NCBI GenBank assembly: GCA_031272275.1
Contig: JAISUC010000003.1
Location: forward strand, 92,214-156,213
Direction of reading: 5' to 3'
DNA length: 64,000 nucleotides
Source: Actinomycetes bacterium
Lineage (GTDB): Bacteria; Actinomycetota; Coriobacteriia; WRKU01; WQUG01
Numbering within the stretch: position 1 is the stretch's first letter; each line of letters begins with the position of its first letter. A program made the translations under genes and the position numbers. This document shows positions 18,725 through 49,029 of the stretch, piece after piece. The notes beneath the pieces were generated by a model that saw nothing but the letters and a program-made list of their open reading frames with translations, was not told the DNA's origin and did no database searches.

Positions 18725-19546
18725 ATGATTATCAGATTGATACAGACACTGCGCGGGTTGGTGCGCGATACCTGGGGCAACCGGGCGATTACCTGGGAGC
18801 TGGCCAAGCGCGACCTGCATAAGAAATACAAGGGCGCGGCGTTGGGCGTGCTGTGGGCGGGTGCGCACCCGATTACGTATGTGTGTGTATATTGGTTTGC
18901 AGTTTCCATCGGATTGCGTGGCGGTAGGTCTGAAACAAATGGTTTTCCCTACATTCTGTGGTTGATTCCCGGTATGTTTGCGTGGCAGACCATCAGCTCG
19001 GCGTTCAGCGAGGGCGGCAACTCCATCCGCAGTCACCGCGAGTTGGTGACCAAGACCGTGTTTCCGTTGATTACCATCCCGCAGTTCAGCATAATTTCTC
19101 TGTTCTTTGTGCATGTTGGGTTGATGGTCTTTGCATTGGCTTTGTTTTTGGTGCTGGGGTATCCGCCCACGATGTATTGGTTGCAATTGCCTTACTATAT
19201 GGCGGCGTCGTTCATTTTCTGTGTTGTCGTTGCGACGTTCTTCAGTGCACTGACGGCATATTCGCGTGACTTGGTACAGTTCATTCGGACGCTCACGCAG
19301 ATTTTGTTCTGGTTTACTCCGATTCTTTGGCCGATTACCAACGTCAGTGGGACCTTGGCTAGCATATTGAAACTGAATCCGATCGTCTATTTGGTCGAGG
19401 GATACCGTGCCAGCATGATTTATCAGACGTGGTTCTTCCAAAAACCGATGTGGACACTGTATTTTTGGGTTGCAACGGCAGCTTTTGCCTTGGTCACGGT
19501 AGTCGTTTGGACACGGATGAGTAAAGATTTTGCGGATGTGCTGTAG
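18725..19546 (+). CDS. tagG: ABC-2 type polysaccharide/teichoic-acid export permease (TagG-like)
   Basis: 273 aa, 6 TM, ABC-2 membrane pattern. It sits immediately upstream of the cognate ATPase. Confidence 0.8.
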   Translation: MIIRLIQTLRGLVRDTWGNRAITWELAKRDLHKKYKGAALGVLWAGAHPITYVCVYWFAVSIGLRGGRSETNGFPYILWLIPGMFAWQTISSAFSEGGNSIRSHRELVTKTVFPLITIPQFSIISLFFVHVGLMVFALALFLVLGYPPTMYWLQLPYYMAASFIFCVVVATFFSALTAYSRDLVQFIRTLTQILFWFTPILWPITNVSGTLASILKLNPIVYLVEGYRASMIYQTWFFQKPMWTLYFWVATAAFALVTVVVWTRMSKDFADVL

Positions 19547-19549
19547 GCG

Positions 19550-20785
19550 ATGAACATGGTGCATGCGATCGAAATCAACGCTATTTCCAAAACCTACCAT
19601 ATCTATGGCAGCGATATCAAGCGTGCGCTGGGTACGCTGGGATTCAAGGTAGACCACAGCGATTTTATTGCCATTGATGATTTGACCTACGGGTTCGAGA
19701 AAGGCGAGGTCACAGCTATACTCGGACGCAATGGAGCGGGGAAATCGACGCTACTGAAACTGATTACCGGGGTGACAACTCCGGACTGTGGCAGCATCGT
19801 GACAACAGGGCGTATTTCGGCGATGCTGGAGCTGAAAAGCGGTTTCGATGGCGAGTTGACCGGCGAAGAAAACATCTATTACAAGGCCCTGACCATGGGT
19901 ATCCCCGAGGCGGACATCGAGCGTGTCAAAGATGAAATCATTGAATTTGCAGACATCGGCATCCACATTAACCAGCCGTTTCGTACCTACTCAAGCGGCA
20001 TGAAAGCACGGTTGGGCTTTGCCGTTGCGGCCAGTGTCAACCCCGACATCTTGATTGTGGATGAGGCTCTGTCTGTCGGAGATGACATTTTCAAAATGAA
20101 ATGTATTGCCAAGATGAATGAATTTCGTCAATTGGGCAAGACGATTTTGTTTGTCAGTCACAGTCTACCGACGGTCAAGGCTTTTTGCACTCGCGCTATT
20201 TGGCTCAACCAAGGCAAGATGATGGCGCAAGGAGACATGGGCGACGTGGTGGTGAAGTACGAGGAGTTCCTGAAAGGGGAGCGAGCAAAAACTCGAGCGC
20301 TTGCCATTGAGCAGTCACCCGAGGAGGATCCTGTTCTGACTAAGCGTGATGTGGTTAATGCCCGCAGGTTCAAATTTCTGAATGACAAAGGCGAGATTAC
20401 TTTCAACCTCGATTTCGGTAAACCGTGGAGCATTATTTTCGAATATACCGTGAAGAAACGCGTTTCTCGGCTTACGGCTGCTTTTTCTATAGAGAATGCC
20501 GAGGGAATAGAAGTGTACTCTTGTGACAAACAGGCACATGTGCTTGATATGTCAAAGGGAGATCATGCCATGCGCATTGATTTCGAGCCGATGGCGCTGG
20601 TTGCCGGCGAATACAAATTCACGCTGGAGGTATGGGACGTCGCATCCAGTTTGATGGTGCGTGCTGCAAACCGTAAACCCTTTACTGTCATCCAGAATGG
20701 CTATGTGGGTACGGGCATTAATTATTTGCCCCATGACATCCATGCAATTGCCCTGTCCGATATCCCCCAGCCGCCAAAACCCTAG
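19550..20785 (+). CDS. tagH: Polysaccharide/teichoic-acid export ATP-binding protein (TagH/Wzt-like) with a C-terminal extra domain
   Basis: Walker A GRNGAGKST, signature YSSGMKARLGFA and Walker B ILIVDEALSVGD. A ~160-aa beta-rich C-terminal domain resembles Wzt-type carbohydrate-binding modules. Confidence 0.8.
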   Translation: MNMVHAIEINAISKTYHIYGSDIKRALGTLGFKVDHSDFIAIDDLTYGFEKGEVTAILGRNGAGKSTLLKLITGVTTPDCGSIVTTGRISAMLELKSGFDGELTGEENIYYKALTMGIPEADIERVKDEIIEFADIGIHINQPFRTYSSGMKARLGFAVAASVNPDILIVDEALSVGDDIFKMKCIAKMNEFRQLGKTILFVSHSLPTVKAFCTRAIWLNQGKMMAQGDMGDVVVKYEEFLKGERAKTRALAIEQSPEEDPVLTKRDVVNARRFKFLNDKGEITFNLDFGKPWSIIFEYTVKKRVSRLTAAFSIENAEGIEVYSCDKQAHVLDMSKGDHAMRIDFEPMALVAGEYKFTLEVWDVASSLMVRAANRKPFTVIQNGYVGTGINYLPHDIHAIALSDIPQPPKP

Positions 20786-20793: not shown

Positions 20794-22101
20794 ATGGCTG
20801 CCCCCATCCTGCAGCGTGGTCGCGCGCCTATACTCAGCATCCTTAAGAAAAGCCGCCTGTTGACAAAGCTCGCACGAGACCTGCTGAACGCGTACCTGCG
20901 CGCGGGCTATCGTCGGTATATGCGACGCAATCCCACCGAACCGAAAACGATACTGTTCGAGGCGTATATGGGCAGATCCTATGCCTGCCACCCCAAAGCG
21001 ATCTATCAGGATCTGTTGGCAGATCCCGCATTCGATGAGTATCGGTTCATCTGGGCTTTCGACAATCCGGAAAAATACGCGGATGATCCCCGCTTTGCCC
21101 GGGCCGAATTGGTCGTATCGGGCAGCCCCGCCTATCGCGCAGCTTGCGCTCGAGCGGCGGTATGGGTCACCAATTCACGTATGCCCGAATATCTGGTGGT
21201 CAAACCCGACCAGACCTATCTACAGGGATGGCACGGCACGCCCTATAAGCGGCTGGGCGCAGACATTGCGATCGACACCGATAATGCCATGAACAGTACC
21301 AAAGACCTTGCTCGCCGTTACGCACGTGATGCGGCACGTTTCACATGGCTGGTCTCTCCCTCGCCCTTCACAACGGACAAATTCCGCTCGGCGTTCAGCT
21401 TGGACGCACAGGGAAAAACCGACATCATTTTGGAATACGGCTATCCGCGTAACGATTATCTCTGTACTGTCAGCGCACAACAGATAATCGAAACAAAACA
21501 GCGTCTGGGTTTACCGCAGGAAAAAAACATCCTGTTGTATGCCCCGACGTGGCGTGATGACATGCACGATTCTGCCAGCGGCTATTACTATCGGTCCTCC
21601 CTGGACTTTCACCAACTGCACGAAACGCTGGGGGATCAGTGGTTGGTGCTGTTTCGAGCGCACTATTTCATCACCAACAGTTTTGATTTTGCGTCTTTGG
21701 ACGGTTTTGTGCGCAATGTCACCGACGTCGACGACATCAACGACCTGTTTGTTGTCAGCGATGTCTTGGTAACCGATTACTCCAGCGTGTTTTTTGACTA
21801 CGCCAATCTGTATCGCCCCATTATTTTCTACATGTACGACAAAGACCATTATCAGACCGGCGTGCGCGACACCTATTTGTCCACAAATGAATTGCCGGGC
21901 AAAATCACTGAAACCCAGGATGAGTTTTTGTCTGCTTTGCGCGAAATCCCCGAAGTCCGCGGCGAAATCCGCGAAGGCTTGGCTCGGTTCAACCGTCGTT
22001 TCAATCCTTACTCAGATGGACTCGCGACCCGTCGCGTCATCGATCGGGTATGGCACGGTATCGACCCGGGTCCCACGCGTCCCAAGGGCCACGACGCATG
22101 A
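20794..22101 (+). CDS. CDP-glycerol (or CDP-ribitol) glycerophosphotransferase, TagF family
   Basis: GWHGTPYKRLG, LYAPTWRDD and VTDYSSVFFDYANLYRPIIFYMYD. 435 aa. Confidence 0.85.
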   Translation: MAAPILQRGRAPILSILKKSRLLTKLARDLLNAYLRAGYRRYMRRNPTEPKTILFEAYMGRSYACHPKAIYQDLLADPAFDEYRFIWAFDNPEKYADDPRFARAELVVSGSPAYRAACARAAVWVTNSRMPEYLVVKPDQTYLQGWHGTPYKRLGADIAIDTDNAMNSTKDLARRYARDAARFTWLVSPSPFTTDKFRSAFSLDAQGKTDIILEYGYPRNDYLCTVSAQQIIETKQRLGLPQEKNILLYAPTWRDDMHDSASGYYYRSSLDFHQLHETLGDQWLVLFRAHYFITNSFDFASLDGFVRNVTDVDDINDLFVVSDVLVTDYSSVFFDYANLYRPIIFYMYDKDHYQTGVRDTYLSTNELPGKITETQDEFLSALREIPEVRGEIREGLARFNRRFNPYSDGLATRRVIDRVWHGIDPGPTRPKGHDA

Positions 22102-33219: not shown

Positions 33220-33221
33220 TA

Positions 33222-34103: not shown

Positions 34104-34154
34104 GTTCGTTATTCCCTCCCTGTTGCGCAGCTTCCGGGGTGTGTCATATCCGGT

Positions 34155-34877
34155 TTATCGGCTCCACGTGTCGTGCCTTACGAATACATACTGTATCGTA
34201 TCCGGAACACATCCTGCCTTAATGTGTGCTTTCAGTGATGCAGGATTGTTGGATGAAATCGGGGTGAGCAGGACTCGTTGCCCCATTGCGCGCGTCCGTT
34301 CCAGACCGGCACGCACAATCAGTCCGGACAGTCCCCGTGATTGGTATGGGGGATACATGCCGCAGAGTGCAACTTTGCACGTACCGAGGTCTGCTTCGCG
34401 CAACAACGTGAAACCAACCGGCATCCCTTCAAAAAGCAGAATCACAAGGTCTGCATTTCTTGCAATTTCATCTCGAATCCAATTGCAGTAACGGCGTGCT
34501 GCAATACGGGGACCAAACACCGGGTCAAGTGCTATTCTGTCGGTTGTGAATAATCCGGACTCGACGGCTTGTAGTAACTCATCGACATCAGCATCCAGTG
34601 CTAGGCGAAAACAGGTGTCCGACTCCGACCCTGAATCTGCAATTTTCAGCGTGTCTGCTCTTAGCGTAAACAGGGATTCGGCATAGTGGAAACCCAGCGT
34701 GGACAGCTCTTCGTACAGGTCAAGTCGACCAATTGGACTTTTTACCACACAGTAACGCGATTTGTCATATGCCAATACATCACGCACATTCTGCAAGTCT
34801 TCGCTGCCATCCAATTCAATCTCATGCGTCTCAACACCCAGATTTCGTTTCTCCCAAACAGCGTCGATGATTCTCAT
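34155..34877 (-). CDS. GNAT-type N-acetyltransferase, WecD/TDP-fucosamine acetyltransferase-like
   Basis: ~240 aa. The N-terminal non-GNAT domain (IIDAVWEKRNLGVETHEI) is followed by a GNAT core (QSRGLSGLIVRAGLERTRAMG). It sits between the sugar aminotransferase/GT2 genes and rfbA. The start (34877 or 34889) is uncertain. Confidence 0.65.
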   Translation of the reverse strand: MRIIDAVWEKRNLGVETHEIELDGSEDLQNVRDVLAYDKSRYCVVKSPIGRLDLYEELSTLGFHYAESLFTLRADTLKIADSGSESDTCFRLALDADVDELLQAVESGLFTTDRIALDPVFGPRIAARRYCNWIRDEIARNADLVILLFEGMPVGFTLLREADLGTCKVALCGMYPPYQSRGLSGLIVRAGLERTRAMGQRVLLTPISSNNPASLKAHIKAGCVPDTIQYVFVRHDTWSR

Positions 34878-35860: not shown

Positions 35861-35864
35861 GCGG

Positions 35865-38421: not shown

Positions 38422-38547
38422 GGATCAAGGCCTCATTTCTGAAATGATAGTCATTTTTGATGATAGTACGATAGCATATTGCATGCGATACTGAAAATGT
38501 TATGTCACAACCGGTAAGCCACGATTTCTGTACCGTGTGATGTACCG

Positions 38548-40023
38548 ATGTCGATTGAAAGGCGGGGAACTGCGGCGGTGGTCGTTACGATGGATAAACA
38601 ACGCAAAGAAACCATTCTGTGGCTGGTGTCTTGCGTGCTGGTTTCTGTGGCGACATTGTTTGCGGGGCGTTATCTGTACTTTCTGCATGGATTACCCCGT
38701 CTTTATTTTGCGACACCGCTGTTGGTTTGTTCAGCGGTGCTGCTGTATGCGTTCCTGTTTCGTAGGCGCGGGTTCACCCTGCGTGATGAATTGCGCTCTA
38801 GTTGGCCTTTGCTTCTGCTGGCATTGATGGATGCGGGATACCTGATTATTGCGTACTGTTTGGCCAGGGTATTGCACTGGGAGAACCTCCCTTCACCACG
38901 TTGGTGGCTGAATATCCTTTTTGCTGTGCTGGCATCCTACGCGGCCTTTTTGCTGGGGCGTGTGAATATCGGTCGCAGACGTGCACTGATTGCGAACTTT
39001 TTGGCGGTGTTTCTGGCGATTTCATTGTTGTTTGGCGCATTTCAGTATCTGCAATATGCGGGTTACAGCAATCCGGTTGCAGGTGCCATCCATGTCTTAA
39101 ATGTGGGGACGGCAAAGCTCTACGGAATGTGGGAATGGAATGCTTCTGAGGTGGGGATACGAGTAGCGGGTATCAATACCGATCCTGTGGCTTTTATGTT
39201 TCCCGCGATGGTCGGTGTTGCTTGGGTTTTCGGGGTGAGTGATGTCAGGTGGCGACGCATTCTGATCGGCATACTGTCATTGGGAATCATCTTTCTCAGC
39301 GGTTCGCGTGGCGCATTGATCGTGACCGGAGTTATGTCGATTGTCTATCTGGTTCGACGGGTGGCTCAGTCGAGAAAAAAAGAATCGGTGGGCCAATCGG
39401 ACCGACGTAAATGGGTTTGGTTCGGTTTGGGCTTACTGCTGGTGATACTCGTCGCTGTGATAGTGTTTTGGGTATTCGGATCCAACGGATTGGTGCTGCG
39501 CCTGCGATCTATCGCGGATGATGTTTCACGCAACGGTGTTACTCTGACGACGATTGATACCGCCCTGTCGGGACGGTTAACGGTATGGCGACTGGCATTC
39601 CAGTCTATTGCGCAACACCCTTTCGGGACATGGCATCCCTTAGGAAACTTGTCCGGGACAACTCTGTTTGGCAGTGATATCACTTACTGGCATGCTCATA
39701 ATGACCTCTTGCAACGTTGGGTAATAGGGGGACCGCTTCTCAGTGCTGTTTTGGTGTTGATGTTCGTATGGATGTATATCCGCTGGAAACAGGATCGTCT
39801 GCATCCTGTGGCGACTGATTTCGGTCTGTACTTTTTCTTGGTTGTCGTGTTGTCAGGTTTGACCGAATCGGTCTTTTTCGACAAAGCATTCCTCGTTCTC
39901 GGCTTCTTTGTTTTGGGAATCCTTACCCAGTCCCCATGCGCAGCGGGTGCAGTCGACGAGGACAGACGGGACGTACTCCCCCCCATGAAGGAAGATGTCA
40001 CTGATGTCTACGGGACGACCTAA
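38548..40023 (+). CDS. O-antigen ligase / polymerase (Wzy_C, WaaL-like) family membrane protein
   Basis: ~12 TM with an SGSRGALIV motif and a large external loop before the last TMs. The start is uncertain (38548 or 38590). The C-terminal tail contains the 15-mer motif. Confidence 0.7.
   Translation: MSIERRGTAAVVVTMDKQRKETILWLVSCVLVSVATLFAGRYLYFLHGLPRLYFATPLLVCSAVLLYAFLFRRRGFTLRDELRSSWPLLLLALMDAGYLIIAYCLARVLHWENLPSPRWWLNILFAVLASYAAFLLGRVNIGRRRALIANFLAVFLAISLLFGAFQYLQYAGYSNPVAGAIHVLNVGTAKLYGMWEWNASEVGIRVAGINTDPVAFMFPAMVGVAWVFGVSDVRWRRILIGILSLGIIFLSGSRGALIVTGVMSIVYLVRRVAQSRKKESVGQSDRRKWVWFGLGLLLVILVAVIVFWVFGSNGLVLRLRSIADDVSRNGVTLTTIDTALSGRLTVWRLAFQSIAQHPFGTWHPLGNLSGTTLFGSDITYWHAHNDLLQRWVIGGPLLSAVLVLMFVWMYIRWKQDRLHPVATDFGLYFFLVVVLSGLTESVFFDKAFLVLGFFVLGILTQSPCAAGAVDEDRRDVLPPMKEDVTDVYGTT
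39968..39984 (+). repeat. 15-mer motif copy GGGACGTACTCCCCCCC, intragenic (3' tail of the ligase-like gene)
   Basis: Exact core, read as R-D-V-L-P-P in the gene frame. Confidence 0.9.
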
Positions 40024-40176: not shown

Positions 40177-41493
40177 GTGTCCGAAAACAAACAGGTTTAC
40201 ATTGCGATTTCTGCCGATATCATTCATAACGGTCACATCAACGTGATTGAACAGGGTGCGGCCCTGGGTGACGTGGTCATCGGTTTGTTGTCCGATGACG
40301 CAATCGCCGCATACAAACGTGCCCCGCTGCTGGATTGGGATACCCGTGCGCGGGTCTTTGCCAGCATCAAAGGGGTCACACGTGTGGTCAAACAAGAAAC
40401 GCTGTCCTATGCGGACAACTTGCGCGCGATTCGTCCCACATATGTTGTGCACGGCGACGATTGGAAAAGCGGAGTGCAGTCCCAGGTGCGCGAAGAGGTG
40501 GTGCGGATTCTGGCGGAACAGGGTGGCGAACTGATCGAGGTTCCCTATACGCGTGATGTGTCGGCGACCTCCCTGGAACGGCAGTTGCGCTCGGTGTATG
40601 GTACTCCCGATATGCGACGGGGCAAGTTGCGCCAGCTGTTGGGTCTGAAACCTTGGATTCGCGCGATCGAGGCATCGAACGGTTTGACCGGTCTGATTGC
40701 GGAAAATGCGCGAGTCGAAGATGCTGCAACCGGTGCCGTACGCGAATTCGATGCGATGTGGGTCAGCTCGCTGTGCGATTCGACCTTTAAAGGCAAGCCG
40801 GATATCGAACTGGTCGATCTGACCAGTCGCGTGAACACCATCAATGAAATCATGGAGGTCACGACCAAGCCGATTATTCTGGACGGTGACACCGGCGGAC
40901 GGACCGAGCACTTCACCTATAACGTCCGCACGCTCGAGCGACTGGGTGTGTCCGCGATCATCGTCGAGGACAAAACCGGCCTGAAACAAAACTCGCTATT
41001 TGGCACCGACGTGCAGCAAACCCTGGACGACCCGCACGAGTTCGCGCGCAAAATGCATGCGGGCAAAGCCGCACAGGCAACCCGTGACTTTATGATATTT
41101 GCGCGTCTGGAGTCCCTGATTGCCGGCATCGGCGTCGACGACGCGCTGGAACGCGCCGACATCTACCTGCACGAAGGCGGCGTGGATGGTCTGATGATTC
41201 ACAGCAAACAGAAAGACGGCGCCGAAATTTTCGAGTTCAGCGACCGATTCCGCCAACGCTACCCCAAAGTTCCGCTGATCTTTGTGCCGACGTCGTACAA
41301 TCAGTTCACCGAATCCGAGCTGGCAGACCACGGCGCTAACATTATCATCTATGCCAACCACCTGTTGCGCAGCGCCTATCCCGCAATGATGGAAACCGCA
41401 ACGACCATTCTGACCGCCGGACGCAGCAAAGAGGTCGACGACCGGTGCCTGCCCATCAAAGAGGTTCTGCGTCTGATTCCGAACGAACTGTGA
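40177..41493 (+). CDS. pepM: Fusion: HxGH cytidylyltransferase-like domain plus phosphoenolpyruvate mutase (PepM/Ppm)
   Basis: GTG start after AGGAGAG. The N-terminal ~130 aa has IIHNGHINVI (HxGH) and VVHGDDW. The C-terminal part carries the PEP-mutase signature EDKTGLKQNS (EDKx5NS) and an isocitrate-lyase-superfamily core. Confidence 0.9.
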   Translation: MSENKQVYIAISADIIHNGHINVIEQGAALGDVVIGLLSDDAIAAYKRAPLLDWDTRARVFASIKGVTRVVKQETLSYADNLRAIRPTYVVHGDDWKSGVQSQVREEVVRILAEQGGELIEVPYTRDVSATSLERQLRSVYGTPDMRRGKLRQLLGLKPWIRAIEASNGLTGLIAENARVEDAATGAVREFDAMWVSSLCDSTFKGKPDIELVDLTSRVNTINEIMEVTTKPIILDGDTGGRTEHFTYNVRTLERLGVSAIIVEDKTGLKQNSLFGTDVQQTLDDPHEFARKMHAGKAAQATRDFMIFARLESLIAGIGVDDALERADIYLHEGGVDGLMIHSKQKDGAEIFEFSDRFRQRYPKVPLIFVPTSYNQFTESELADHGANIIIYANHLLRSAYPAMMETATTILTAGRSKEVDDRCLPIKEVLRLIPNEL

Positions 41494-41498
41494 TCGCG

Positions 41499-42677
41499 AT
41501 GATTGCACCCGACGATTTCATACACGCCGTGAAAGATGCCGGGTTGGATCTGTACGCCGGCGTCCCCGATTCGCTGCTCAAAGAACTGTGTGCCTGCTTG
41601 CGCGACACGGTGCCGGCGGACCGAAACATCATCACCGCCAACGAAGGCAACGCCATCGCGCTGGCTGCCGGCTATCACATCGCGACCGGCAAAGCGGGCG
41701 TAGTCTACATGCAAAACAGCGGTCAGGGAAACGCCGTGAATCCGCTGGCGTCGTTAACCGATCCGGCAGTCTATGCCATCCCCATGCTGCTGCTGATCGG
41801 ATGGCGCGGACAACCCGGTGTCACCGATGAGCCCCAGCACGTCAAACAGGGTGAAATCACCTTAGATCTGCTGCACGTACTGGGCGTTCCCTATCGTGTA
41901 CTGTCGGCGGACTGGCACACCGACCTGGCCGAAATGCTCCGCATCATGCGCGCGCAAAACACGCCCGTGGCACTCGTCATCCCCAAAGGCAGCTTTCAGC
42001 GCTACACTCCCCCGATTAACGACGTGGAAAACACGGCGGGCAAGCACGTCCCCGCGTCCACGGCAGACCGGGATTTGCCGCTACTGCGCGAACAGGCACT
42101 GTCGCTGGTGCTGGACGCCGTCGATCCGGGAGATTTCCTGGTCACAACCACGGGCAAGACCTCGCGTGAACTGTTTGAACTGCGCGAGGCACGCGGTGAT
42201 GGGCATACGCAGGACTTTTTGACCGTGGGTTCGATGGGACACACGGCATCCATTGCGTTCGGGATGGCGCTGGAATCCAACCGGCGCGTGTGGTGCATTG
42301 ACGGCGACGGTTCGTTTTTGATGCATCTGGGTGGCTTGGCGGTTATTGCACAAAATATGCCCGACAATTTCCGTTATGTGTTGAATAACAACGGCGCGCA
42401 CGAATCGGTGGGCGGACAACCGACGGTGGCACGCGACATCGACATAGCGGGCATTTTGCAGGCGATGGGTTTCTTGCGCGTGTTCACGGCGTGCAATGCC
42501 GATGAACTGACCTGTGTCTTGCATCAGATGGCTGACCTGCCGGGCAGCGCCCTGATTATCGAAACACGACCGGGTTCGCGTGACGACTTGGGTCGACCCA
42601 CCACAACACCACAGGAAAATAAAGTTGCCATGATGCGTGCGTTTGCAGGCGACGAAGGAACTGAATCGGCGGGATAG
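41499..42677 (+). CDS. ppd: Phosphonopyruvate decarboxylase (ThDP-dependent)
   Basis: GVPDSLLKELC at the N-terminus, ANEGNAIALAAGY, and ThDP motif IDGDGSFLMH...NNGAHESVGG. It starts 6 nt after the pepM stop. Confidence 0.88.
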   Translation: MIAPDDFIHAVKDAGLDLYAGVPDSLLKELCACLRDTVPADRNIITANEGNAIALAAGYHIATGKAGVVYMQNSGQGNAVNPLASLTDPAVYAIPMLLLIGWRGQPGVTDEPQHVKQGEITLDLLHVLGVPYRVLSADWHTDLAEMLRIMRAQNTPVALVIPKGSFQRYTPPINDVENTAGKHVPASTADRDLPLLREQALSLVLDAVDPGDFLVTTTGKTSRELFELREARGDGHTQDFLTVGSMGHTASIAFGMALESNRRVWCIDGDGSFLMHLGGLAVIAQNMPDNFRYVLNNNGAHESVGGQPTVARDIDIAGILQAMGFLRVFTACNADELTCVLHQMADLPGSALIIETRPGSRDDLGRPTTTPQENKVAMMRAFAGDEGTESAG

Positions 42678-42774: not shown

Positions 42775-44625
42775 ATGAAAGCGGTTATTTTTAACTCGGG
42801 TATCGGCAAGCGTATGGGGGAATTCACCCGCACGCAGCACAAGTCGATGGCACGCCTGGCAAATGGCGAGACCCTGTTTGCACGCCAGTTGCGCCTGTTG
42901 CGTGCGGCGGGCATTCGTGATTTTGTGGTGACAACCGGTCCTTTTGCCGACCAGTTACAACAAACGGTACATGCCGCGCGTTATGCGGATTGCCGGGTGA
43001 CGTTTGTTGAAAACCCCGATTACGCAACGACGAACTATATCGTCTCGATGCACCGGGCTGCCGCTTATCTGGACGACGACCTGTTGTTTTTGCATGGTGA
43101 CTTGGTGTTCGATGCGGATTATCCAGGCGTGGTGATGAATGCACCGTACCGGGACCTAGGTTCGGTGAACACAAAGCTGTCGTTGCCCGAAAAGGACTTC
43201 AAAGCCAGAGTAATCGACGGCCGTGTGCGCGAGGTTTCGGTCGGCATTTTCGGCGATGACTGCGTGGCGTTTCAGCCGTTTTACAAGCTGTCGCGTGCAA
43301 CTGCCGCAGCCTGGCTGGCACGGGTTGCCGATTTCGTTGCTGCAGGGAACACGCAGGTGTATGCGGAAAACGCACTGAATGAATTGTTGGCTGATCTACC
43401 GGTGCATGCATTCAGTTATGCGGATCACTACGTCGAAGAGATTGACACCACAGATGACCTGGCACGCGTGTCCGCGGCCATCCGCGACTATGATTTCGCG
43501 CAGCAACCGACCGTGACCGATGACACCGAATCGGCGTTGCAAGTGTTGCTGGATCAGGTGGGTGCTGTTACGCGCCCCATGCTTGTTGCTGGCATCGCAC
43601 CGGACAGGCTGGGGTTGACCGAAACCTTGGACCGCTGGCGCAGTACCGGTGCGGTCATCACCGGATTCAGCAATTTTTCCCCGAATCCGACCTACGAACA
43701 GGTCGCAGCAGGTGTGCGCCTGTTTCGTGATGCCGACTGTGATGCGCTGGTGTCGCTGGGTGGTGGCAGTGCCATCGACACCGCCAAATGCATCAAACTG
43801 TATGGCGGGCTGGATCTGAGCGGTGACACCGATCTCACTGACGCCGTGCCCCTGAATGTGCCCCATATCGCCATCCCCACCACAGCAGGCACCGGCAGCG
43901 AGGCCACGCGCTTTGCGGTCATTTATCGCGACGGAGCCAAACAGTCGGTGACCCACGACGGCATCGTGCCGGATGCAGCGCTACTGGATGCGGCACTGTT
44001 GGCGGGGCTTCCCGATTACCAGCGCAAGGCAACCTTGCTGGATGCACTGGCACAGGCCATCGAGTCCTGGTGGTCGGTCAACTCGACCCCACAGTCAATC
44101 GACTATTCCCGCCGCGCCATCGCGCTGATACTGCCTGCAATCGACGGCTTTCTGGCGGGGGATGACACGGCTGCGTCGGCGATGCTACAGGCGGCCAACT
44201 TAGCGGGGCGCGCCATCAACCTGACCCAGACCACGGCGGCCCACGCGATGAGCTATAAAGTGACGTCGCTCATGGGTCCCGCGCACGGGCACGCGGTGGC
44301 ACTGTGCCTGCCGGGTGTCTGGCGCTATGCGATCACTCATCCGGATGCCTGTATCGATTCACGCGGGGGGGAGTATCTCGCTCGCGTCTTGGATGATCTG
44401 GCGGCATCGTTCGGGGTCGCAACGGCAGCTGATGCCCCCGAGCGGTTTGCGCAGATCCTTGCGGGCTTTGACTTGCCCCCGGTCACAGCGGGCCCACAGA
44501 CAATCGAGATCCTGTGCGCGTCGGTAAACTCGGACCGTCTGCGTAACTTCCCCATCCGCCTGTCCGCAGATGCAATACGCGCGATATATACGCAGGCGTT
44601 GTCGACGGGGGCCATGCATGAGTAA
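42775..44625 (+). CDS. Fusion: LicC/PntC-like nucleotidyltransferase plus iron-containing alcohol dehydrogenase (phosphonoacetaldehyde reductase-like)
   Basis: N-terminus MKAVIFNSGIGKRMG (NTP-transferase loop). The C-terminal half has GGGSAIDTAKC and PTTAGTGSEATRFAV, plus His-rich metal ligands of Fe-ADHs. 616 aa. Confidence 0.8.
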   Translation: MKAVIFNSGIGKRMGEFTRTQHKSMARLANGETLFARQLRLLRAAGIRDFVVTTGPFADQLQQTVHAARYADCRVTFVENPDYATTNYIVSMHRAAAYLDDDLLFLHGDLVFDADYPGVVMNAPYRDLGSVNTKLSLPEKDFKARVIDGRVREVSVGIFGDDCVAFQPFYKLSRATAAAWLARVADFVAAGNTQVYAENALNELLADLPVHAFSYADHYVEEIDTTDDLARVSAAIRDYDFAQQPTVTDDTESALQVLLDQVGAVTRPMLVAGIAPDRLGLTETLDRWRSTGAVITGFSNFSPNPTYEQVAAGVRLFRDADCDALVSLGGGSAIDTAKCIKLYGGLDLSGDTDLTDAVPLNVPHIAIPTTAGTGSEATRFAVIYRDGAKQSVTHDGIVPDAALLDAALLAGLPDYQRKATLLDALAQAIESWWSVNSTPQSIDYSRRAIALILPAIDGFLAGDDTAASAMLQAANLAGRAINLTQTTAAHAMSYKVTSLMGPAHGHAVALCLPGVWRYAITHPDACIDSRGGEYLARVLDDLAASFGVATAADAPERFAQILAGFDLPPVTAGPQTIEILCASVNSDRLRNFPIRLSADAIRAIYTQALSTGAMHE

Positions 44626-46849
44626 CCACGCCATGCACGAGTTGCAGCGCTATGGGCTCGAGATGCTGAAAACATTCGATGCGTTCTGCCGGGAGCATAG
44701 CTTGCCCTATTACCTCGGCGAAGGTACCCTGTTGGGTGCCGTGCGTCATGGGGGCTACATTCCTTGGGATGACGATGTCGATGTGATGATGCTGCGCGAG
44801 GACTATGACCGATTTGTCCGGCTGGCGCGCGAGCACTATCCGGCGCAGCACGTATTGGACTGCATCGACACCAACGATAAGCACTGGTCGATTTGCGCAA
44901 AACTGCAGTTGGCACGCCAAACACCGTATTATTTGGCGCGGTTTGCGGGGCTTGCGCTGAGCAACAACCCCTGCATCGATATTTTTCCGCTGGATCACGT
45001 GGCATCCGACCACGGGCTTCGGCTATGGTGGCAGGCGGCGCGTTCCCGTCTGTATCGACGGGTCCTATGGGTCAAGCTGGGGGTGCATAATTGTTTCACG
45101 CACAAGACCTTGACCGGTCGATTGACGAAGTTCTACCCGTTCAAATTGCTGTCGCTGTTTTTCAGTAAGGATTTTTTGCAGCGTCACCTGGAGTCCACCA
45201 TCCGTGCGCAGAACCGCAACACGAATGCCGCCTATGTGGCGAACTTCGGCAGCCTGTATCCGGTCAAGCGTGAGGTCTGGCCCGTGTCATGGTTTGAGCC
45301 GGTGCCGCACCGGTTCGAGGATCTGGATAGTTTCATTCCCGCCGGATACGACGCGCTGTTACGCCGTGTCTATGGCGATTACATGCAGCTGCCGCCGGCA
45401 GAGGATCGTGTGCCGAAACACAACTATGCGCGCCGTATCGGTGCACCCGGCGAGGACGAACAATTGCGGCTGAGTCGCGGGGAAACGGTCAAGCGCCGCT
45501 TGCAGCTGACGGTGCGGCGCATACGTAAAAAGCTCGTGCGACCGCTCCGCCTGTTGGTGGTGGTGTTGGGCAAACGATTCCCGGGAATCAAGCACCGCTG
45601 GAACGATATGATTATCGATCGACGGCGTGCGCGCTATCAACGTTTGGCCGCAACGATCTCCATTGATCACAAACTGGTCTTTTTCCAGTCCTTTATGGGA
45701 CGCGGCTATACCGACAGCCCCAAGGCGCTGTATCGCGCAATGCTGGCAGACCCCCGCTTTGACGACTACCGGTTTGTGTGGGCATTTCGCGACCCCAAAA
45801 AATATCGCCATCATCCGGATATGAAACGCGCCCAGGTGGTTCGCCATAACTCCGACGAGTTCTATCAGGCTTTTGCAGCTGCGGGAACCTGGATAATGAA
45901 CCTGCGCATACATGCCTGGGTCGACCCCAAGCCGGGACAAGTCTTCGTGCAGACGTGGCACGGCACGCCGCTGAAACGTATCGGCTGCGACATCGAGGTG
46001 CAGACTGCCGGGGCGATTAGTGACAATCAGGACCTTGCAGAGAAATTCCGCATTGACTCCCCCAAACAAACTTGGTTTTTGTCACCGTCGGAATTTGCCA
46101 GCGACTGCTTCCGCACGGCGTTCGATATGGCGCGCTATCACGACCACGACATCATCATCCAAGAGGGCTACCCGCGAAACGATTTTCTGGTGAATTATAC
46201 GCCGCATGACGTTGCCGCCATCAAAAAACGCCTGCTGATTCCCGATGACAAAAAGGTGCTGCTGTATGCGCCGACCTGGCGTGATGACCAACACGATGCG
46301 CGGGTGGGCTATACGTTTCGGGCGGAGCTGGATTTCGATCGCCTGCAGGAAGAATTGGGCGACGACTGGGTGGTGCTGTTTCGGGCGCACTATTATGTGG
46401 CCAGTAGTTTCGATTTCAGCCGCTATCTGGGGTTTGTCTATGATGTCTCGGGCGAAGACGACATCAGCGAACTGTATGTGGTTTCCGACGTGCTGGTGAC
46501 CGATTATTCCAGTTCGTTTTTCGACTATGCGGTGCTGGGTCGCCCCATTTTGTTTTATATGTACGACTACGAATTTTATGCTGGGCAGCTGCGCGGGTTT
46601 TACCTGTCGCTGGATGGGTTACCCGGTCCGATTTCACAGACACAGGATGCGCTGTTGGACGACTTGGCGCGATTGGATGAAATTTCGGGGGAGTATGCCG
46701 AACGCTATGCGGCATTCCGGGCGCGCTATTGCGCTCTGGACGATGGTCATGTCAGCGAACGGGTGCTGCAACGGGTGTTTTTCGGGGACGATGCTGCCGG
46801 TACAGGTGATGTGATTGACGGGAACACGACCGATGGAGGCGGGCAATGA
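44618..46849 (+). CDS. Fusion: LicD-family phosphotransferase plus TagF-family glycerophosphotransferase
   Basis: N-terminal LicD motifs YYLGEGTLLGAVRHGGYIPWDDDVDVMM. The C-terminal part has QTWHGTPLKRIG, LYAPTWRDD and VTDYSSSFFDYAVLGRPILFYMYD. The ATG at 44618 overlaps the upstream stop. Confidence 0.85.
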   Translation: MSNHAMHELQRYGLEMLKTFDAFCREHSLPYYLGEGTLLGAVRHGGYIPWDDDVDVMMLREDYDRFVRLAREHYPAQHVLDCIDTNDKHWSICAKLQLARQTPYYLARFAGLALSNNPCIDIFPLDHVASDHGLRLWWQAARSRLYRRVLWVKLGVHNCFTHKTLTGRLTKFYPFKLLSLFFSKDFLQRHLESTIRAQNRNTNAAYVANFGSLYPVKREVWPVSWFEPVPHRFEDLDSFIPAGYDALLRRVYGDYMQLPPAEDRVPKHNYARRIGAPGEDEQLRLSRGETVKRRLQLTVRRIRKKLVRPLRLLVVVLGKRFPGIKHRWNDMIIDRRRARYQRLAATISIDHKLVFFQSFMGRGYTDSPKALYRAMLADPRFDDYRFVWAFRDPKKYRHHPDMKRAQVVRHNSDEFYQAFAAAGTWIMNLRIHAWVDPKPGQVFVQTWHGTPLKRIGCDIEVQTAGAISDNQDLAEKFRIDSPKQTWFLSPSEFASDCFRTAFDMARYHDHDIIIQEGYPRNDFLVNYTPHDVAAIKKRLLIPDDKKVLLYAPTWRDDQHDARVGYTFRAELDFDRLQEELGDDWVVLFRAHYYVASSFDFSRYLGFVYDVSGEDDISELYVVSDVLVTDYSSSFFDYAVLGRPILFYMYDYEFYAGQLRGFYLSLDGLPGPISQTQDALLDDLARLDEISGEYAERYAAFRARYCALDDGHVSERVLQRVFFGDDAAGTGDVIDGNTTDGGGQ

Positions 46850-47256
46850 AACGAGTGCTGACCTACGGAACCTTTGATTTGCTGCATCACGGGCATATCC
46901 GTATCCTGCGGCGTGCCCGAGAAATGGGCGATTACCTGGTTGTTGCCGTGTCGACCGACGAATTCAATGCCGGCAAGGGCAAGAAATCCTATATGGATTA
47001 TGCGACACGCGCAGAAATCGTCGCGGCCATTCGTTATGTGGACAAGGTCATCCCCGAACGCAGCTGGGAGCAAAAGGTCGAAGACATTGTCGACAACGAC
47101 ATCGACATTGTCGTGATGGGCGATGACTGGGCGGACAGTGATCGCTTCGATTATCTGCGTGATTACTGCGAGCTGGTATTCCTGCCGCGCACTGAAGGTG
47201 TATCAACCACCGAAATCAAGGAAGACCTGCGCCGCGAGGGCAAGCTGTTGGATTGA
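46846..47256 (+). CDS. tagD: Glycerol-3-phosphate cytidylyltransferase
   Basis: TYGTFDLLHHGHIRIL (HxGH) and RTEGVSTTEIK (RTxGISTT). 136 aa, with an ATGA overlap onto the upstream gene. Confidence 0.92.
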   Translation: MKRVLTYGTFDLLHHGHIRILRRAREMGDYLVVAVSTDEFNAGKGKKSYMDYATRAEIVAAIRYVDKVIPERSWEQKVEDIVDNDIDIVVMGDDWADSDRFDYLRDYCELVFLPRTEGVSTTEIKEDLRREGKLLD

Positions 47257-47441
47257 TGGGGCGCGGGCGTTTTGCGAGGGGGCTTAACGGAATCTTAAGA
47301 GTTTGAGGGTGCGGGGGGAGTTTCTCGGAAAAAGTTGTGGATAAGTACTTGCGTTCGCTGTGAGTGGGCTCCAGACTGAAGGGGCAATGACCACCGGTGT
47401 CCGGCGCTGCGGTGCCGGCACTGTCAGAAACGGGGTTGGAT

Positions 47442-48701
47442 ATGAACGTTCCGGGAATGCTATTCAGGTCGCCGTCACTCGTGACTGCGCAGACAGGGTT
47501 TGTGCCACAGTGTCGCCGGCGTGGCCGTGTGGCTGCGCCTGCTGTGGCGTTATTGAGCCTCTGCTGTCTGTTCGGCTGCTTGTTCGGTGTGTTGCCTGTC
47601 AGCACCGGGTCGTTTGTGGGGGTGCCGACGGCTGCGGCGGCGACGGTGACGCATCCGCAGATCTTGTTGGGCTTTGAACAGCGTTATGGGGATGCCAATA
47701 AAAAACACCTAGGAGTCGATGTCGCTGCCGTTGCCGGCGCCGATGTGCATGCACCGGTGGCGGGCACCGTCAGTTTCATCGGACGGGTTCCGGGTTCTGC
47801 CGGTCTGAATGTCACCGCTCTGACCATCACAGACGCATCCGGACGACAGATTTGCGTAAACCCCTTGGCATCGACTGCGGTAAAGAAAGGCGACACGGTC
47901 AGCAAACACCAGGTGGTAGGAACGCTGGCTGCCACGGGTGATCCGTCGGTCGACGCCTGCCATTTTCACCTGAGCCTGCGCGTCGACGGGAAATACCGTG
48001 ACCCGTCCGGGTTGCTGGAAGACGTGATGGAGCCTGCCGGACTTGCGGTGGCGGGGCAGGCGGATGCCGGCGCCACGGGCACCGATGCGGGGCCTGCTGC
48101 TGCGGCGGGTGTCGTGGAAGCGCCGGCAGCTGCCGGGGCACCGAACGCGGTGGGGACTACGGTCGCCCGTACGGTTTCATCCGGGCAACACAGCGGGGAG
48201 GGTGCCGCGCAGAAGCGCACGGAAGCCCGGACCGCTGCCGCTCCGGCGGCTGCGGCTGCCGGTGTCGGTGTGGCGGAGCTGTCCGGGAAGCCGGCAGTCC
48301 GTCCGATAGGGGTGGGACAGCAGAAACACGCGGGTGCCGACATCCCGCTTCCCCCTCTTTCTCCGCTTCATCAGGGGGTGGTAGGCACTGTCCTGTCGGC
48401 GGCCGGTGCAATGAAACTGCGGGCGACCGATGCGCACGCGTCTGAGCGTGCCGGTGTGACCGGAGCGGAGTCGGCCGGCGAATCGGATGCGGTCGGTAAT
48501 GTCGGAGCCACGTGGTATAACAGCCTTATCAGTACGTATGGACCGCTGCAGATTGCGGGAATGCTGTTTGCGGCAGCCGTCGTGCTTTCCTGTGCAGGGT
48601 ATGGGGTGTTTGTGCTCGCTCGCGGTGTCATTTGCGCGTCGGACGCGAATGATGGTACAATGGCGAGCCACGCATCCTGCTCCGGGCAAAGCCTTCTTTA
48701 G
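47442..48701 (+). CDS. M23-family (LytM-like) metallopeptidase with an Ala-rich spacer and a C-terminal hydrophobic anchor
   Basis: HLGVDVAA...DVHAPVAGTV...HFHLSL are the M23 zinc ligands. There is an N-terminal signal/TM, a long Ala/Gly/Pro-rich region and a terminal TM (IAGMLFAAAVVLSCAGYGVFVLA). The start is either 47397 or 47442. Confidence 0.75.
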   Translation: MNVPGMLFRSPSLVTAQTGFVPQCRRRGRVAAPAVALLSLCCLFGCLFGVLPVSTGSFVGVPTAAAATVTHPQILLGFEQRYGDANKKHLGVDVAAVAGADVHAPVAGTVSFIGRVPGSAGLNVTALTITDASGRQICVNPLASTAVKKGDTVSKHQVVGTLAATGDPSVDACHFHLSLRVDGKYRDPSGLLEDVMEPAGLAVAGQADAGATGTDAGPAAAAGVVEAPAAAGAPNAVGTTVARTVSSGQHSGEGAAQKRTEARTAAAPAAAAAGVGVAELSGKPAVRPIGVGQQKHAGADIPLPPLSPLHQGVVGTVLSAAGAMKLRATDAHASERAGVTGAESAGESDAVGNVGATWYNSLISTYGPLQIAGMLFAAAVVLSCAGYGVFVLARGVICASDANDGTMASHASCSGQSLL

Positions 48702-48735
48702 ACCCGGGGCCGCAAAGACCGAAGGAGGTGAAAGA

Positions 48736-49029
48736 GTGAAGGCATATGAACTGTTGGTGATATTCAATCCGACCTTAAGCGAAGACGATCGCGCTGCCGC
48801 GCTGGAACGCGCTACGAAACTCGTGGGCGACGGCGGGTCAGTTATCGACGAGGTGAACGAATGGGGCAAGCAGAAGTTGGCGTACGAGATCAATAAGATC
48901 AAGGACGGCGACTATGTACTGTTTGATTTCCATGCCAATCCCGAGCACGTTGCCGAGATCGACCGCGTTTTGAGGATCACCGATACCGTTGTACGCTTTA
49001 TGATGGTGCGACGTGAAGACAAAGACTGA
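48736..49029 (+). CDS. rpsF: 30S ribosomal protein S6
   Basis: GTG start 8 nt after GAAGGAGG. The sequence VKAYELLVIFNP...GDYVLFDF is S6-like. The track ORF 48487..49029 is an in-frame upstream extension. Confidence 0.9.
   Translation: MKAYELLVIFNPTLSEDDRAAALERATKLVGDGGSVIDEVNEWGKQKLAYEINKIKDGDYVLFDFHANPEHVAEIDRVLRITDTVVRFMMVRREDKD

Follow-up and report, generated by a model that had tools for sequence, protein, structure and literature searches.

Here we report a single open frame of 743 codons in which a complete LicD domain is joined to a complete TagF-type domain, encoded as the fourth gene of a five-gene operon (CyTase-PepM, Ppd, NTase-FeADH, LicD-TagF, TagD) inside a 29-kb teichoic-acid-like locus of the window, by which we mean the whole 64,000-nucleotide stretch of DNA analysed, from an uncultured bacterium of Gram-positive type. 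Judging by its domains and surroundings, we lean towards a reading in which the LicD half takes CMP-HEP as the donor of 2-hydroxyethylphosphonate (HEP) and the TagF half adds glycerol-phosphate (GroP), with no order assigned to the two additions. The pathway type, so far a predicted one, has already been catalogued, and the case described here is a new variant of it.

Operon and locus

The genes of the operon, together with genes from the start of the locus, were assigned as follows:

18725..20785, + strand: TagG/TagH-like ABC exporter (ABC-2 permease; ATPase with Wzt_C), start of the glycopolymer locus
20794..22101, + strand: stand-alone TagF paralog, 435 aa, 47% identical to the TagF half of the fusion over 400 aa
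40177..41493, + strand: cytidylyltransferase-like domain (PF01467, aa 13-110) with PEP mutase (TIGR02320, 376 bits; cut-off 319.55), a Fom1-like architecture
41445..42677, + strand: phosphonopyruvate decarboxylase (TIGR03297, 426 bits; cut-off 312.5)
42775..44625, + strand: NTP_transf_3 (PntC/LicC-type nucleotidyltransferase) fused to an Fe-alcohol dehydrogenase (Fe-ADH), by domain profile matches
44618..46849, + strand: LicD-TagF fusion, 743 aa with a single terminal stop in translation
46846..47256, + strand: tagD, glycerol-3-phosphate cytidylyltransferase (TIGR01518, 181.3 bits; cut-off 165.4)

These profile matches bear out the placement of the fusion between phosphonate genes and tagD that had been proposed in a first-pass annotation. 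The protein combining NTP_transf_3 and Fe-ADH, which has a counterpart of the same 616-aa architecture in another phosphonate operon (L031), is predicted to lead from phosphonoacetaldehyde to HEP and on to NMP-HEP; its Fe-ADH scores 151 bits against the phosphonate Fe-ADH equivalog model, below the cut-off of 423.7, which counts against the HEP reading. The presence in the operon of two phosphonate-associated nucleotidyltransferase domains in addition to TagD also counts against the explanation that we prefer. The fusion begins with an ATG at 44618, in overlap with the upstream TAA (44623-44625) and with a GGGGG stretch just before it; the alternative ATG at 44633, which gene callers elsewhere used, yields 738 aa. 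At its other end, the TGA of the fusion is overlapped by the ATG of tagD (ATGA), an arrangement by which the TagF half is translationally coupled to the only TagD-type enzyme in the genome. However, TagD must also supply the other TagF paralogs of the locus, and the position of tagD is therefore weaker evidence than it seems at first sight. The stand-alone TagF paralog adjoins tagGH, and an LCP ligase is encoded in the genome.

Domains of the fusion and their relatives

Within the fusion, the following elements were distinguished:

44687..45376, + strand: LicD domain, aa 24-253 (Pfam PF04991, E 7.9e-37, 128 bits; cut-off 22.6)
45413..45481, + strand: flexible junction, aa 266-288, the only internal stretch of the AlphaFold2 model with pLDDT <50
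45452..45466, + strand: putative relic translation start, with SD-like GAGGA (45452-45456), a 7-nt spacer and in-frame TTG (codon 283, 45464-45466)
45485..45655, + strand: in the TagF half, a basic leader of two helices (aa 290-346); stand-alone TagFs have a homologous N-terminal leader
45647..46780, + strand: TagF-type (Glyphos_transf, GT-B) domain, aa 344-721 (Pfam, E 3.2e-105, 352.5 bits; cut-off 22.1)

The Pfam matches confirm that one protein carries both domains, as had been claimed from the letters alone, and the motifs quoted in that claim were all found in the 743-residue translation (GAVRHGGYIPWDDDVDVMM at aa 40-58, QTWHGTPLKRIG at aa 445-456, LYAPTWRDD at aa 549-557 and VTDYSSSFFDY at aa 627-637). 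An AlphaFold2 model of the fusion (mean pLDDT 90.3) has two folded domains.

The LicD half carries a DDDxD motif (D51-D52-D53-V54-D55 at 44768-44782, codons checked) that matches D50/51/52/54 of Mycoplasma fermentans Mf1 (PMC11982090), as well as a DIFPLD motif (D121), and keeps all 32 alignment columns that show no variation among 12 members of its clade. In a LicD tree of 122 rows, it falls inside a clade of 30 rows (SH-aLRT 99) that includes 21 HEP-linked rows (17 distinct domains), six from one derived LicD-TagF family and two with truncated contexts. Mapping the HEP label onto the tree takes 5 changes, compared to a shuffled mean of 20.4 (0 of 500 shuffles were as low), and in an unbiased GTDB scan all six LicD domains with HEP genes within 6 kb fell in this same clade. 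Among the 119 non-self clusters closest to the LicD half, 23 combine LicD with an Fe-ADH domain in one polypeptide, in several cases together with NTP_transf_3, and Fe-ADH-linked LicD is also seen in genomic context (e.g. L016, L017 and L018). Members of the clade are mostly fused or adjacent to HEP-forming enzymes (Fe-ADH, nucleotidyltransferase). This HEP-dominated clade, and the finding that the LicD half is the only LicD of a 94%-complete genome, lend comparative support to the pairing of LicD with phosphonate implied in the first-pass annotation. In the searchable literature we found no biochemistry on members of the clade or on any glycan phosphonyl transferase. The clade is not strictly HEP-specific, as nested within it is a family of ~930-aa LicD-TagF proteins (e.g. 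P0149, from pig-gut metagenomes) without phosphonate genes nearby.

The TagF half is ~45% identical to residues 336-710 of S. epidermidis TagF (302 bits) and keeps all of its donor-site motifs; the catalytic His448 (45959-45961) and His591 (46388-46390) align to H444 and H584 of that enzyme, mapped via the mutant entries 3l7j and 3l7m, and a Foldseek comparison of the model with TagF gave E 5e-37 and TM(target) 0.82-0.84. Ordinary stand-alone TagFs match it at 412-482 bits, compared to 46-86 bits for the divergent TagF-like proteins of L016 and L018, and its closest relative within the tree is the stand-alone paralog of its own locus (sister, support 82/90). Against the NCBIfam TarF equivalog model the fusion protein reaches 312 bits, below the cut-off of 550, and it may be either a primase or a polymerase. 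These similarities place the TagF half among the canonical CDP-glycerol enzymes, and the earlier pairing of TagF with glycerol-phosphate is supported by the identity to S. epidermidis TagF, the retention of both histidines and the coupling to the genome's only TagD.

Origin and integrity of the fusion

The junction points to a recent origin. Codon 282 is CAA, one substitution from TAA, and probably represents the former licD stop, with GAGGA and TTG as the ancestral tagF start. The complete N-terminal leader of a stand-alone TagF is still present; aa 266-346 hold 24 K/R in 81 residues, and from what is known of TagF the basic two-helix leader is a probable membrane-association element. The same fusion was found in 0 of 60 relatives and in a single 90%-identity cluster out of 5.8 billion. 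The fusion is lineage-specific and looks like the result of a recent stop-codon loss. In the ~930-aa family the domain order is the same and the LicD domain belongs to the same clade, but the TagF domains lie far off in a clade of their own (144-185 bits, versus 412-482 bits for stand-alone TagFs), a C-terminal extension of ~180 aa is present, and the neighbour is an SDR-cytidylyltransferase gene, which together argue that the fusion described here is of independent origin. A further independent fusion, P0008, has the reverse order (FeADH-TagF-LicD) and joins a canonical-type TagF to a HEP-clade LicD within a PepM-Ppd-NTase operon. LicD and TagF have thus become joined in at least three independent events, and this favours a real functional coupling over an artefact.

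The same features could be read to mean that in the cell licD and tagF are separate neighbouring genes with coupled translation, and that their in-frame join reflects an error of the consensus, or a minority allele, at the stop codon of licD. The junction fits a single substitution exactly (TAA to CAA at codon 282, then the in-frame TTG, with GAGGA at 7-nt spacing), and the rarity of the fusion and the entire retention of the TagF leader also favour this view. We nevertheless regard it as very unlikely, given that L012, a 12.3-kb Logan assembly made independently from run SRR14710912, is 100% identical over window positions 44400-47300 with the same gene order, an agreement between two different assemblers that spans 2.9 kb, that consensus substitution errors are rare, and that real LicD/TagF fusions occur in at least two other independent lineages. 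Orthologs had been named beforehand as the means of exposing the fusion as local or artefactual: its absence from relatives and the look of a single stop-codon loss agree with a local event, while the independent fusions speak against an artefact. Were the join an artefact, the functional inference from adjacent, coupled genes would stay the same.

Proposed donors and product, and known systems

For the preferred pairing of HEP with LicD and GroP with TagF, the donor of each domain, the acceptor and the cellular location that we infer are as follows. PepM, Ppd and Fe-ADH would convert PEP to HEP, activation of HEP to CMP-HEP would fall to one of the two nucleotidyltransferase domains associated with phosphonate, and TagD would supply CDP-glycerol. 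The fusion would act as a bifunctional, peripherally membrane-associated transferase at the cytoplasmic face, with a lipid-linked teichoic-acid-like polymer as acceptor; its LicD half (nucleotidyltransferase fold, DDDxD metal site) would transfer the hydroxyethylphosphonyl group from CMP-HEP to a polymer hydroxyl, and its TagF half (GT-B fold, His448 as catalytic base) would transfer sn-glycerol-3-phosphate from CDP-glycerol. Since the two halves share one chain and are connected by a flexible linker of 23 residues, one half probably acts on what the other has made, and a possible product is a GroP unit that carries HEP as a cap in a glycerol-phosphonate ester. Once complete, the polymer would cross the membrane through the TagGH-like ABC transporter and be linked to peptidoglycan by the genome's LCP enzyme. 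The domain calls, the operon position and the general idea of two head-group transferases with a common product, all put forward earlier from the sequence, are supported.

Other assignments of donors were also weighed. The TagF half, alone or with the LicD half, might take CMP-HEP and make HEP an in-chain unit, with LicD setting HEP on a glycerol hydroxyl and TagF adding GroP (or HEP) to the hydroxyl of HEP. As HEP ends in a free hydroxyl on one side and in the phosphonate on the other, the two sites could work in alternation, and the result would be a 'phosphono-teichoic acid' with C-P bonds in its backbone. CMP-HEP is nearly isosteric with the CDP-glycerol head. PepM-Ppd-NTase(-FeADH) operons repeatedly carry a TagF-like gene with no nearby tagD (L001, L016, L017 with FeADH-TagF-MptE, L018 and L031), as do phosphonate operons of the relatives G009 and G050, where TagF-like proteins are present with no LicD, and this recurrence means that a TagF-type domain could itself take a CMP-phosphonate. 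Fused two-transferase TagF-like enzymes such as Cps3D and Bcs3, structural neighbours of the model, are alternating polymerases (PMC5974469, PMC10299916). However, the TagF half lies in the canonical subfamily and not near the TagF-like proteins of L016 and L018, and its conserved donor-site motifs, its sister relationship to the locus's own TagF and its coupling to TagD all weigh against in-chain HEP. A poly(HEP) or GroP-HEP backbone is, to our knowledge, without chemical precedent, and overall we consider this arrangement unlikely. Alternatively, both halves might use CDP-glycerol, LicD priming a sugar with the first GroP and TagF extending it, with phosphonate added by another enzyme or not placed on the polymer. 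This would agree with the ~930-aa family, whose single neighbouring SDR-cytidylyltransferase gene probably makes one donor, with the common occurrence of LicD directly beside tagD in other genomes (17 rows of the LicD tree), and with donor flexibility in the LicD family, where Mf1 takes CDP-choline and CDP-ethanolamine (PMC11982090) and FKTN and FKRP accept CDP-glycerol, according to reference 28 of that source. We hold it to be quite improbable, as the TagD-adjacent LicDs are scattered outside the clade of the fusion (15 changes for 17 rows, unclustered) whereas the fusion's LicD sits in the HEP-linked clade, the genome has no other LicD to install HEP, and the operon is without any other transferase candidate.

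The operon follows the order of PepM, Ppd and nucleotidyl activation of a phosphonate seen in the Pnt clusters with LicD-like transferases of Atopobium rimae, Olsenella uli and Treponema denticola (Rice et al. 2019, PMC6697681) and in the HEP/PhpC branch of the catalogue by Li & Horsman 2022 (PMC8942020). It shares with these systems nearby LicD-like phosphotransferase genes, presumed decorators of cell-wall glycans, and probably a host class (Coriobacteriia). The studied Pnt clusters make 2-aminoethylphosphonate via a transaminase, whereas the operon here has no transaminase and an Fe-ADH instead, with HEP as the predicted product, and only here is LicD fused to a TagF domain in an operon ending in tagD. 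The early fosfomycin pathway of Streptomyces wedmorensis (Fom1/Fom2/FomC; cited in PMC6697681) has the same CyTase-PepM fusion, Ppd, Fe-ADH and CMP-HEP intermediate; there CMP-HEP is a transient antibiotic intermediate, while here it is a predicted wall-polymer donor, and a LicC/PntC-type nucleotidyltransferase is additional. S. epidermidis TagF (PDB 3L7I-3L7M) and the TarF/TagB-type CDP-glycerol glycerophosphotransferases have the catalytic His, GT-B fold and basic helical leader in common with the fusion, in addition to the identity noted above; at its N-terminus S. epidermidis TagF carries another kind of domain (about aa 1-310), and it lacks LicD. Cps3D (A. pleuropneumoniae, PDB 8QOY) and Bcs3 (H. 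influenzae b, PDB 8A0C) likewise join a TagF-like polyol-phosphate transferase to a second transferase, the product of one site being the acceptor of the other (PMC5974469, PMC10299916); their partner domains are glycosyltransferases or phosphatases in place of LicD, and in Gram-negative bacteria they build poly(glycosyl-polyol-phosphate) capsules without phosphonate. With the LicD family (pneumococcal LicD1/LicD2, Mf1, human FKTN/FKRP) the fusion shares the Pfam LicD domain and DDDxD motif of enzymes that use CDP-activated alcohol-phosphate donors (PMC11982090); its direct match to FKRP is weak, and it scores 64 bits against the Mf1 equivalog model, below the cut-off of 225. Known LicD members transfer phosphocholine, phosphoethanolamine or ribitol-phosphate, whereas phosphonate transfer is predicted here.

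Yu et al. are said to have recovered, in 2014, the 2-HEP mono(2,3-dihydroxypropyl) ester from actinomycete phosphonoglycans. Such a glycerol-HEP ester is the linkage that would be expected from this enzyme pair, and the fusion is a candidate for the step that places phosphonates on bacterial surfaces.

The LicD-TagF gene and its surroundings

The fusion gene is translated without interruption from 44618 to 46849 on the plus strand (743 residues), and its translation contains all four sequence motifs quoted in the first-pass annotation, which had also correctly placed it between the phosphonate genes and tagD. It occupies position four in a run of five closely spaced genes on the plus strand:

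40177-41493, plus strand: CTP_transf_like (CyTase) domain with PEP mutase, PepM (TIGR02320, 376.4 bits, above the cut-off of 319.55)
41445-42677, plus strand: phosphonopyruvate decarboxylase, Ppd (TIGR03297, 426.1 bits, above the cut-off of 312.5)
42775-44625, plus strand: NTP_transf_3 with Fe-ADH (Pfam)
44618-46849, plus strand: LicD-TagF fusion (Pfam)
46846-47256, plus strand: TagD (TIGR01518, above cut-off)

The fusion overlaps both of its neighbours, the TAA of the upstream gene with its own ATG (44618) and the tagD ATG at 46846 with its TGA (46847-46849). Scanning the operon for promoters and terminators returned four promoter-like sites where 3.3 would be expected, and none of the terminator candidates was convincing. 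Since Pfam and NCBIfam searches identified no aminotransferase in the five-gene operon, the predicted phosphonate is 2-hydroxyethylphosphonate (HEP) and not 2-aminoethylphosphonate. The Fe-ADH carries the Pfam domains of its family, and its top NCBIfam model, the phosphonate Fe-ADH, scores 151 bits, under the cut-off of 423.7. Predicted activation of the phosphonate has two candidate nucleotidyltransferases (NTases), the NTP_transf_3 domain on Fe-ADH and the CTP_transf_like domain on PepM; the latter, considered as a TagD equivalent, reaches just 37 bits on TIGR01518. Three nucleotidyltransferase domains of two folds are present in the operon (TagD-like on PepM, LicC/PntC-like on Fe-ADH, and the stand-alone TagD), and the pairing of CyTase-PepM with NTP_transf_3 recurs in the compared loci L001, L017, L018, L020 and L031.

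The operon forms the end of a locus of approximately 29 kb (18.7-47.3 kb), which also encodes:

TagG/TagH-like ABC exporter
three further TagF-family proteins, of 435, 677 and 446 aa
IspD-like cytidylyltransferase with an SDR
pyruvyl transferase and several GT2s
dTDP-4-amino-4,6-dideoxyhexose route: RmlA, RmlB, DegT and a WecD-like acyltransferase
DUF6056 GT-C-like protein and a Wzy_C protein

The host genome is a 1.77-Mb MAG, 94% complete, with one LCP ligase, in which a six-frame search identified no second LicD. There is likewise no second TagD in this 94%-complete MAG, the other CTP_transf_like matches having been rejected for this role as CoaD, NadD and RibF. In the middle of the glycopolymer locus, GC content falls to 0.48-0.50 (26000-40000) relative to 0.57-0.62 in the flanks; this stretch may be a cassette that was exchanged, and its genes include those for a TagF paralog, the pyruvyl transferase, GT2s and the dTDP-aminosugar. 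At 22050-25919 the divergent 677-aa TagF-family protein (73 bits in Pfam, unmatched in NCBIfam) is followed by the IspD-like cytidylyltransferase and SDR, genes that probably supply and use a second CDP-alditol, such as CDP-ribitol. Downstream of the operon, the longest ribosomal protein S6 ORF (48487-49029) spans 180 aa with the S6 domain confined to aa 87-175, and the true start probably lies downstream of the longest-ORF start.

Domain make-up and origin of the fusion

Both domains are full-length: LicD at aa 24-253 (PF04991, 128 bits against a cut-off of 22.6, covering all 227 profile positions; 131.7 bits when the genome was searched in six frames) and Glyphos_transf/TagF at aa 344-721 (PF04464, 352.5 bits with a cut-off of 22.1, covering positions 6-366 of the 367 in the profile). 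Residues 288-345 share homology with the basic leader at the N terminus of stand-alone TagFs (LGKRFPGIKHR versus LGKRNPRFR or VGKRFLPFR), and the protein is therefore a complete LicD joined head-to-tail with a complete TagF. An AlphaFold2 model (mean pLDDT 90.3) folds into two well-ordered domains, in which the sole disordered internal stretch, aa 266-288, is followed by long helices at 290-320 and 322-346. At the junction, an SD-like GAGGA stands 7 nt ahead of an in-frame TTG at codon 283, and codon 282 (CAA) is a single substitution away from TAA. The nucleotide sequence suggests that the licD stop codon was lost and the two genes thereby fused, and the TagF half might also be translated separately from the internal TTG start.

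With such a junction, and with the only near-identical full-length match in a clustered protein database of 5.8 billion clusters being its own cluster, the fusion could be a consensus artefact of what are really two coupled genes. We regard this as very unlikely: a second (Logan) assembly, from run SRR14710912, has the same gene order and is 100% identical across 2.9 kb, including the whole fusion gene. The fusion is real, and the interpretation placed on it in the first-pass annotation, two consecutive head-group additions by one enzyme, is a reasonable one.

That annotation had added that orthologs showing the fusion to be a local assembly or frameshift artefact would count against it. The arrangement is indeed local, in that a full-length match is missing from all 60 relatives compared (same family, order or class), where LicD and TagF are stand-alone genes; however, the two domains have been fused independently at least three times, once in reverse order, as the TagF tree and the scores of the separate domains indicate. 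The 119 non-self clusters that come closest to the LicD half include 26 LicD-TagF proteins of ~910-1040 aa and one FeADH-TagF-LicD protein (P0008); another 36 are GT2-LicD proteins and 23 contain an Fe-ADH domain, several of these also with NTP_transf_3. Against ordinary stand-alone TagFs the TagF half reaches 412-482 bits, and its sister in the tree (82/90) is the 435-aa TagF encoded in the same locus. A distant clade (100/99; 144-185 bits) holds the TagF domains of the ~930-aa family, a group of uncharacterised LicD-TagF proteins known from pig-gut metagenomes, and the P0008 TagF, 44.5% identical to the TagF half, is placed elsewhere among stand-alone TagFs. As the TagF halves lie in different clades, orthology of the fusion to the ~930-aa family was rejected. 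Such repeated fusion argues for functional coupling of the two domains.

Predicted donors of the two halves

The LicD half (pLDDT >90) contains both the DDDxD motif, D51-D52-D53-V54-D55, comparable with the acidic motif described for Mf1 (D50/51/52/54; PMC11982090), and the second Asp motif, DIFPLD (D121). Its match to FKRP (6kaj) is weak and by sequence only (E 2.4e-4, aa 28-65), the whole-model fold search being dominated by the GT-B half. At 64.4 bits it falls below the 225-bit cut-off of the Mf1-type cholinephosphotransferase equivalog (NF045866), and it is not classed as a phosphocholine transferase. In a 122-row LicD tree it falls inside a clade with SH-aLRT 99; of the 30 rows in this clade, 21 are HEP-linked (17 distinct domains), six belong to the ~930-aa family, and two have contexts ending at contig ends. 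The HEP label requires 5 changes on the tree compared with a shuffled mean of 20.4. In the same tree the LicD of a same-class relative groups with Collinsella, which would place the host in the class Coriobacteriia. Scanning one genome per GTDB species with an alignment of the clade, a set that does not include the window's own record, returned no LicD more than 37% identical. In all four best matches, from MAGs of Arachnia, Clostridia, Acutalibacteraceae and Muribaculaceae, licD lies immediately 3' of Fe-ADH; three of these loci also have Ppd and NTase, two of them CyTase-PepM as well, while in L021 Fe-ADH alone is seen. HEP modules that include TagF-like and LicD-like genes were seen at six of the compared loci. 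Gene content at four of the compared loci illustrates how LicD is combined with phosphonate enzymes:

L016: ABC exporter, Ppd, FeADH-LicD, TagF, LicD
L017: CyTase-PepM, Ppd, NTase-FeADH-LicD-LicD, FeADH-TagF-MptE
L018: LicD, TagF, ABC exporter, CyTase-PepM, Ppd, NTase-FeADH-LicD, GT2-LicD
L001: CyTase-PepM, Ppd, NTase, FeADH-TagF-LicD

The NTase-FeADH-LicD chain would unite three predicted reactions that follow one another (reduction to HEP, its cytidylylation, and transfer), and this arrangement is the strongest available argument that the LicD clade transfers HEP. Together with FeADH-LicD proteins and the fusion itself, it supports assigning the whole clade to predicted HEP transfer. Two further contexts were observed. 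At L013 (8842-12796), L014 and L015, ~930-aa LicD-TagF proteins adjoin a 379-aa SDR and cytidylyltransferase fusion (TIGR01518, only 74 bits) and phosphonate genes are absent nearby, yet the LicD domains of this family nest in the HEP-linked clade. Stand-alone LicDs directly beside tagD, with no TagF detectable near (L023, L032, L044, L045, L048, L064, L071, L075, L086 and L096), are common in MAGs of gut Firmicutes and Coriobacteriia, which suggests that they are LicD-type glycerol-phosphate transferases.

For the TagF half, CDP-glycerol is the putative donor on several grounds: the domain is close to a characterised TagF with every donor-site motif conserved, sister to the ordinary TagF of the locus, and translationally coupled to the only TagD of the genome. 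It aligns with S. epidermidis TagF 336-710 at ~45% identity (302 bits), and the active-site histidines, located with the help of two mutant chains in the PDB, 3l7j (H to N) and 3l7m (H to A), are conserved as H448 (QTWHGTPLKR) and H591 (LFRAHYY), corresponding to TagF H444 and chain position 584. The title of 3l7m reads H548A, probably a typing error, as the substituted residue is at chain position 584 in the alignment. The GT-B half of the model matches the TagF structures 3l7i-3l7m (Foldseek E 5e-37, TM(target) 0.82-0.84), followed by Cps3D, TarL and Bcs3. Because it misses the equivalog cut-offs for TarF (NF041712, 312 versus 550 bits), TarL (NF041713, 99 versus 1000) and TarB (NF041711, 57.9 versus 500), we assign the TagF half to no particular equivalog, whether primase or polymerase.

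Proposed mechanism, alternatives and significance

In the mechanism that we favour with modest confidence, the operon would supply both CMP-HEP, the activated form of HEP, and CDP-glycerol, and the LicD half would transfer the hydroxyethylphosphonyl group and the TagF half glycerol-phosphate (GroP) to a lipid-linked, teichoic-acid-like polymer at the inner membrane face. TagGH would then export the polymer for attachment to peptidoglycan by the LCP enzyme. A glycerol ester of 2-HEP was reportedly recovered by Yu and co-workers in 2014 from phosphonoglycans of the actinomycetes Glycomyces and Stackebrandtia, which would fit GroP being added first and the HEP cap second.

Other assignments of donors to the two halves were also considered. 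Unlikely as it is, the best placed of these has the TagF half using CMP-HEP, or the enzyme acting as an alternating GroP/HEP polymerase. TagF-like genes recur in phosphonate operons without tagD, some also without LicD (L031, G009 and G050), and some TagF-family enzymes may therefore use CMP-phosphonates. For example, in the same-family relative G009 (L105, C28, 1995-12016), PepM, Ppd and NTP_transf_3 accompany an 821-aa protein of FeADH, partial TagF (TagF_N) and an MptE-like domain, with CMP-Kdo-type genes (CTP_transf_3, DAHP_synth_1, SIS+CBS) and a 430-aa TagF on its 3' side and LicD absent from the locus. In the same-class relative G050 (L106, C126, 3431-10939), PepM, NTP_transf_3 and Ppd stand immediately ahead of two TagF-like proteins (726 and 716 aa), the C-terminal ~300 aa of each being without a Pfam match, and no LicD was found at this locus. 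The TagF half of the fusion is itself distant from the divergent TagF-like proteins, scoring 46-86 bits against those of L016 and L018. The FeADH-TagF-MptE architecture, common to L105 and L017, may represent an alternative phosphonate installer.

Use of CDP-glycerol by both halves appears improbable: the LicDs adjoining tagD are scattered in the LicD tree, outside the clade of the window's LicD. We consider equally improbable a two-site polymerase in which a LicD site using CMP-HEP alternates with a TagF site using CDP-glycerol to build poly(glycerol-phosphate-hydroxyethylphosphonate), a teichoic acid that would, if real, have backbone C-P bonds and so resist phosphodiesterases and phosphate scavenging. 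Alternating polymerases of the Cps3D/Bcs3 type combine a TagF-like domain with a glycosyltransferase, whereas the partner here is LicD; the likeness to multi-domain TagF-like capsule polymerases extends only to the principle of fused consecutive transferases.

Phosphonate biosynthesis is encoded by ~5% of bacterial genomes, mostly for decoration of the cell surface (PMC8942020, PMC6697681), and the HEP branch accounts for 8.5% of ppm neighbourhoods (Li & Horsman 2022, PMC8942020). Nucleotidyl activation and LicD-like genes near ppm have been described in oral Coriobacteriia and Treponema (Rice et al. 2019, PMC6697681). The pathway type is thus known from genome surveys and both LicD and TagF are established families; the fusion is a lineage-specific new arrangement inside a recurrent, catalogued module of predicted function, and not a new kind of system. 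Our search of the accessible literature returned no paper on a characterised enzyme attaching an activated phosphonate to a glycan. By tying LicD, the presumed phosphonyl transferase, to a well-understood TagF and to its donor supply, TagD, the locus offers a compact, soluble-looking candidate and a useful experimental handle, and it hints at joint installation of glycerol-phosphate and HEP. In gut and oral Coriobacteriia, wall polymers bearing phosphonates could affect phage adsorption, recognition by the host and the phosphorus economy of the cell.
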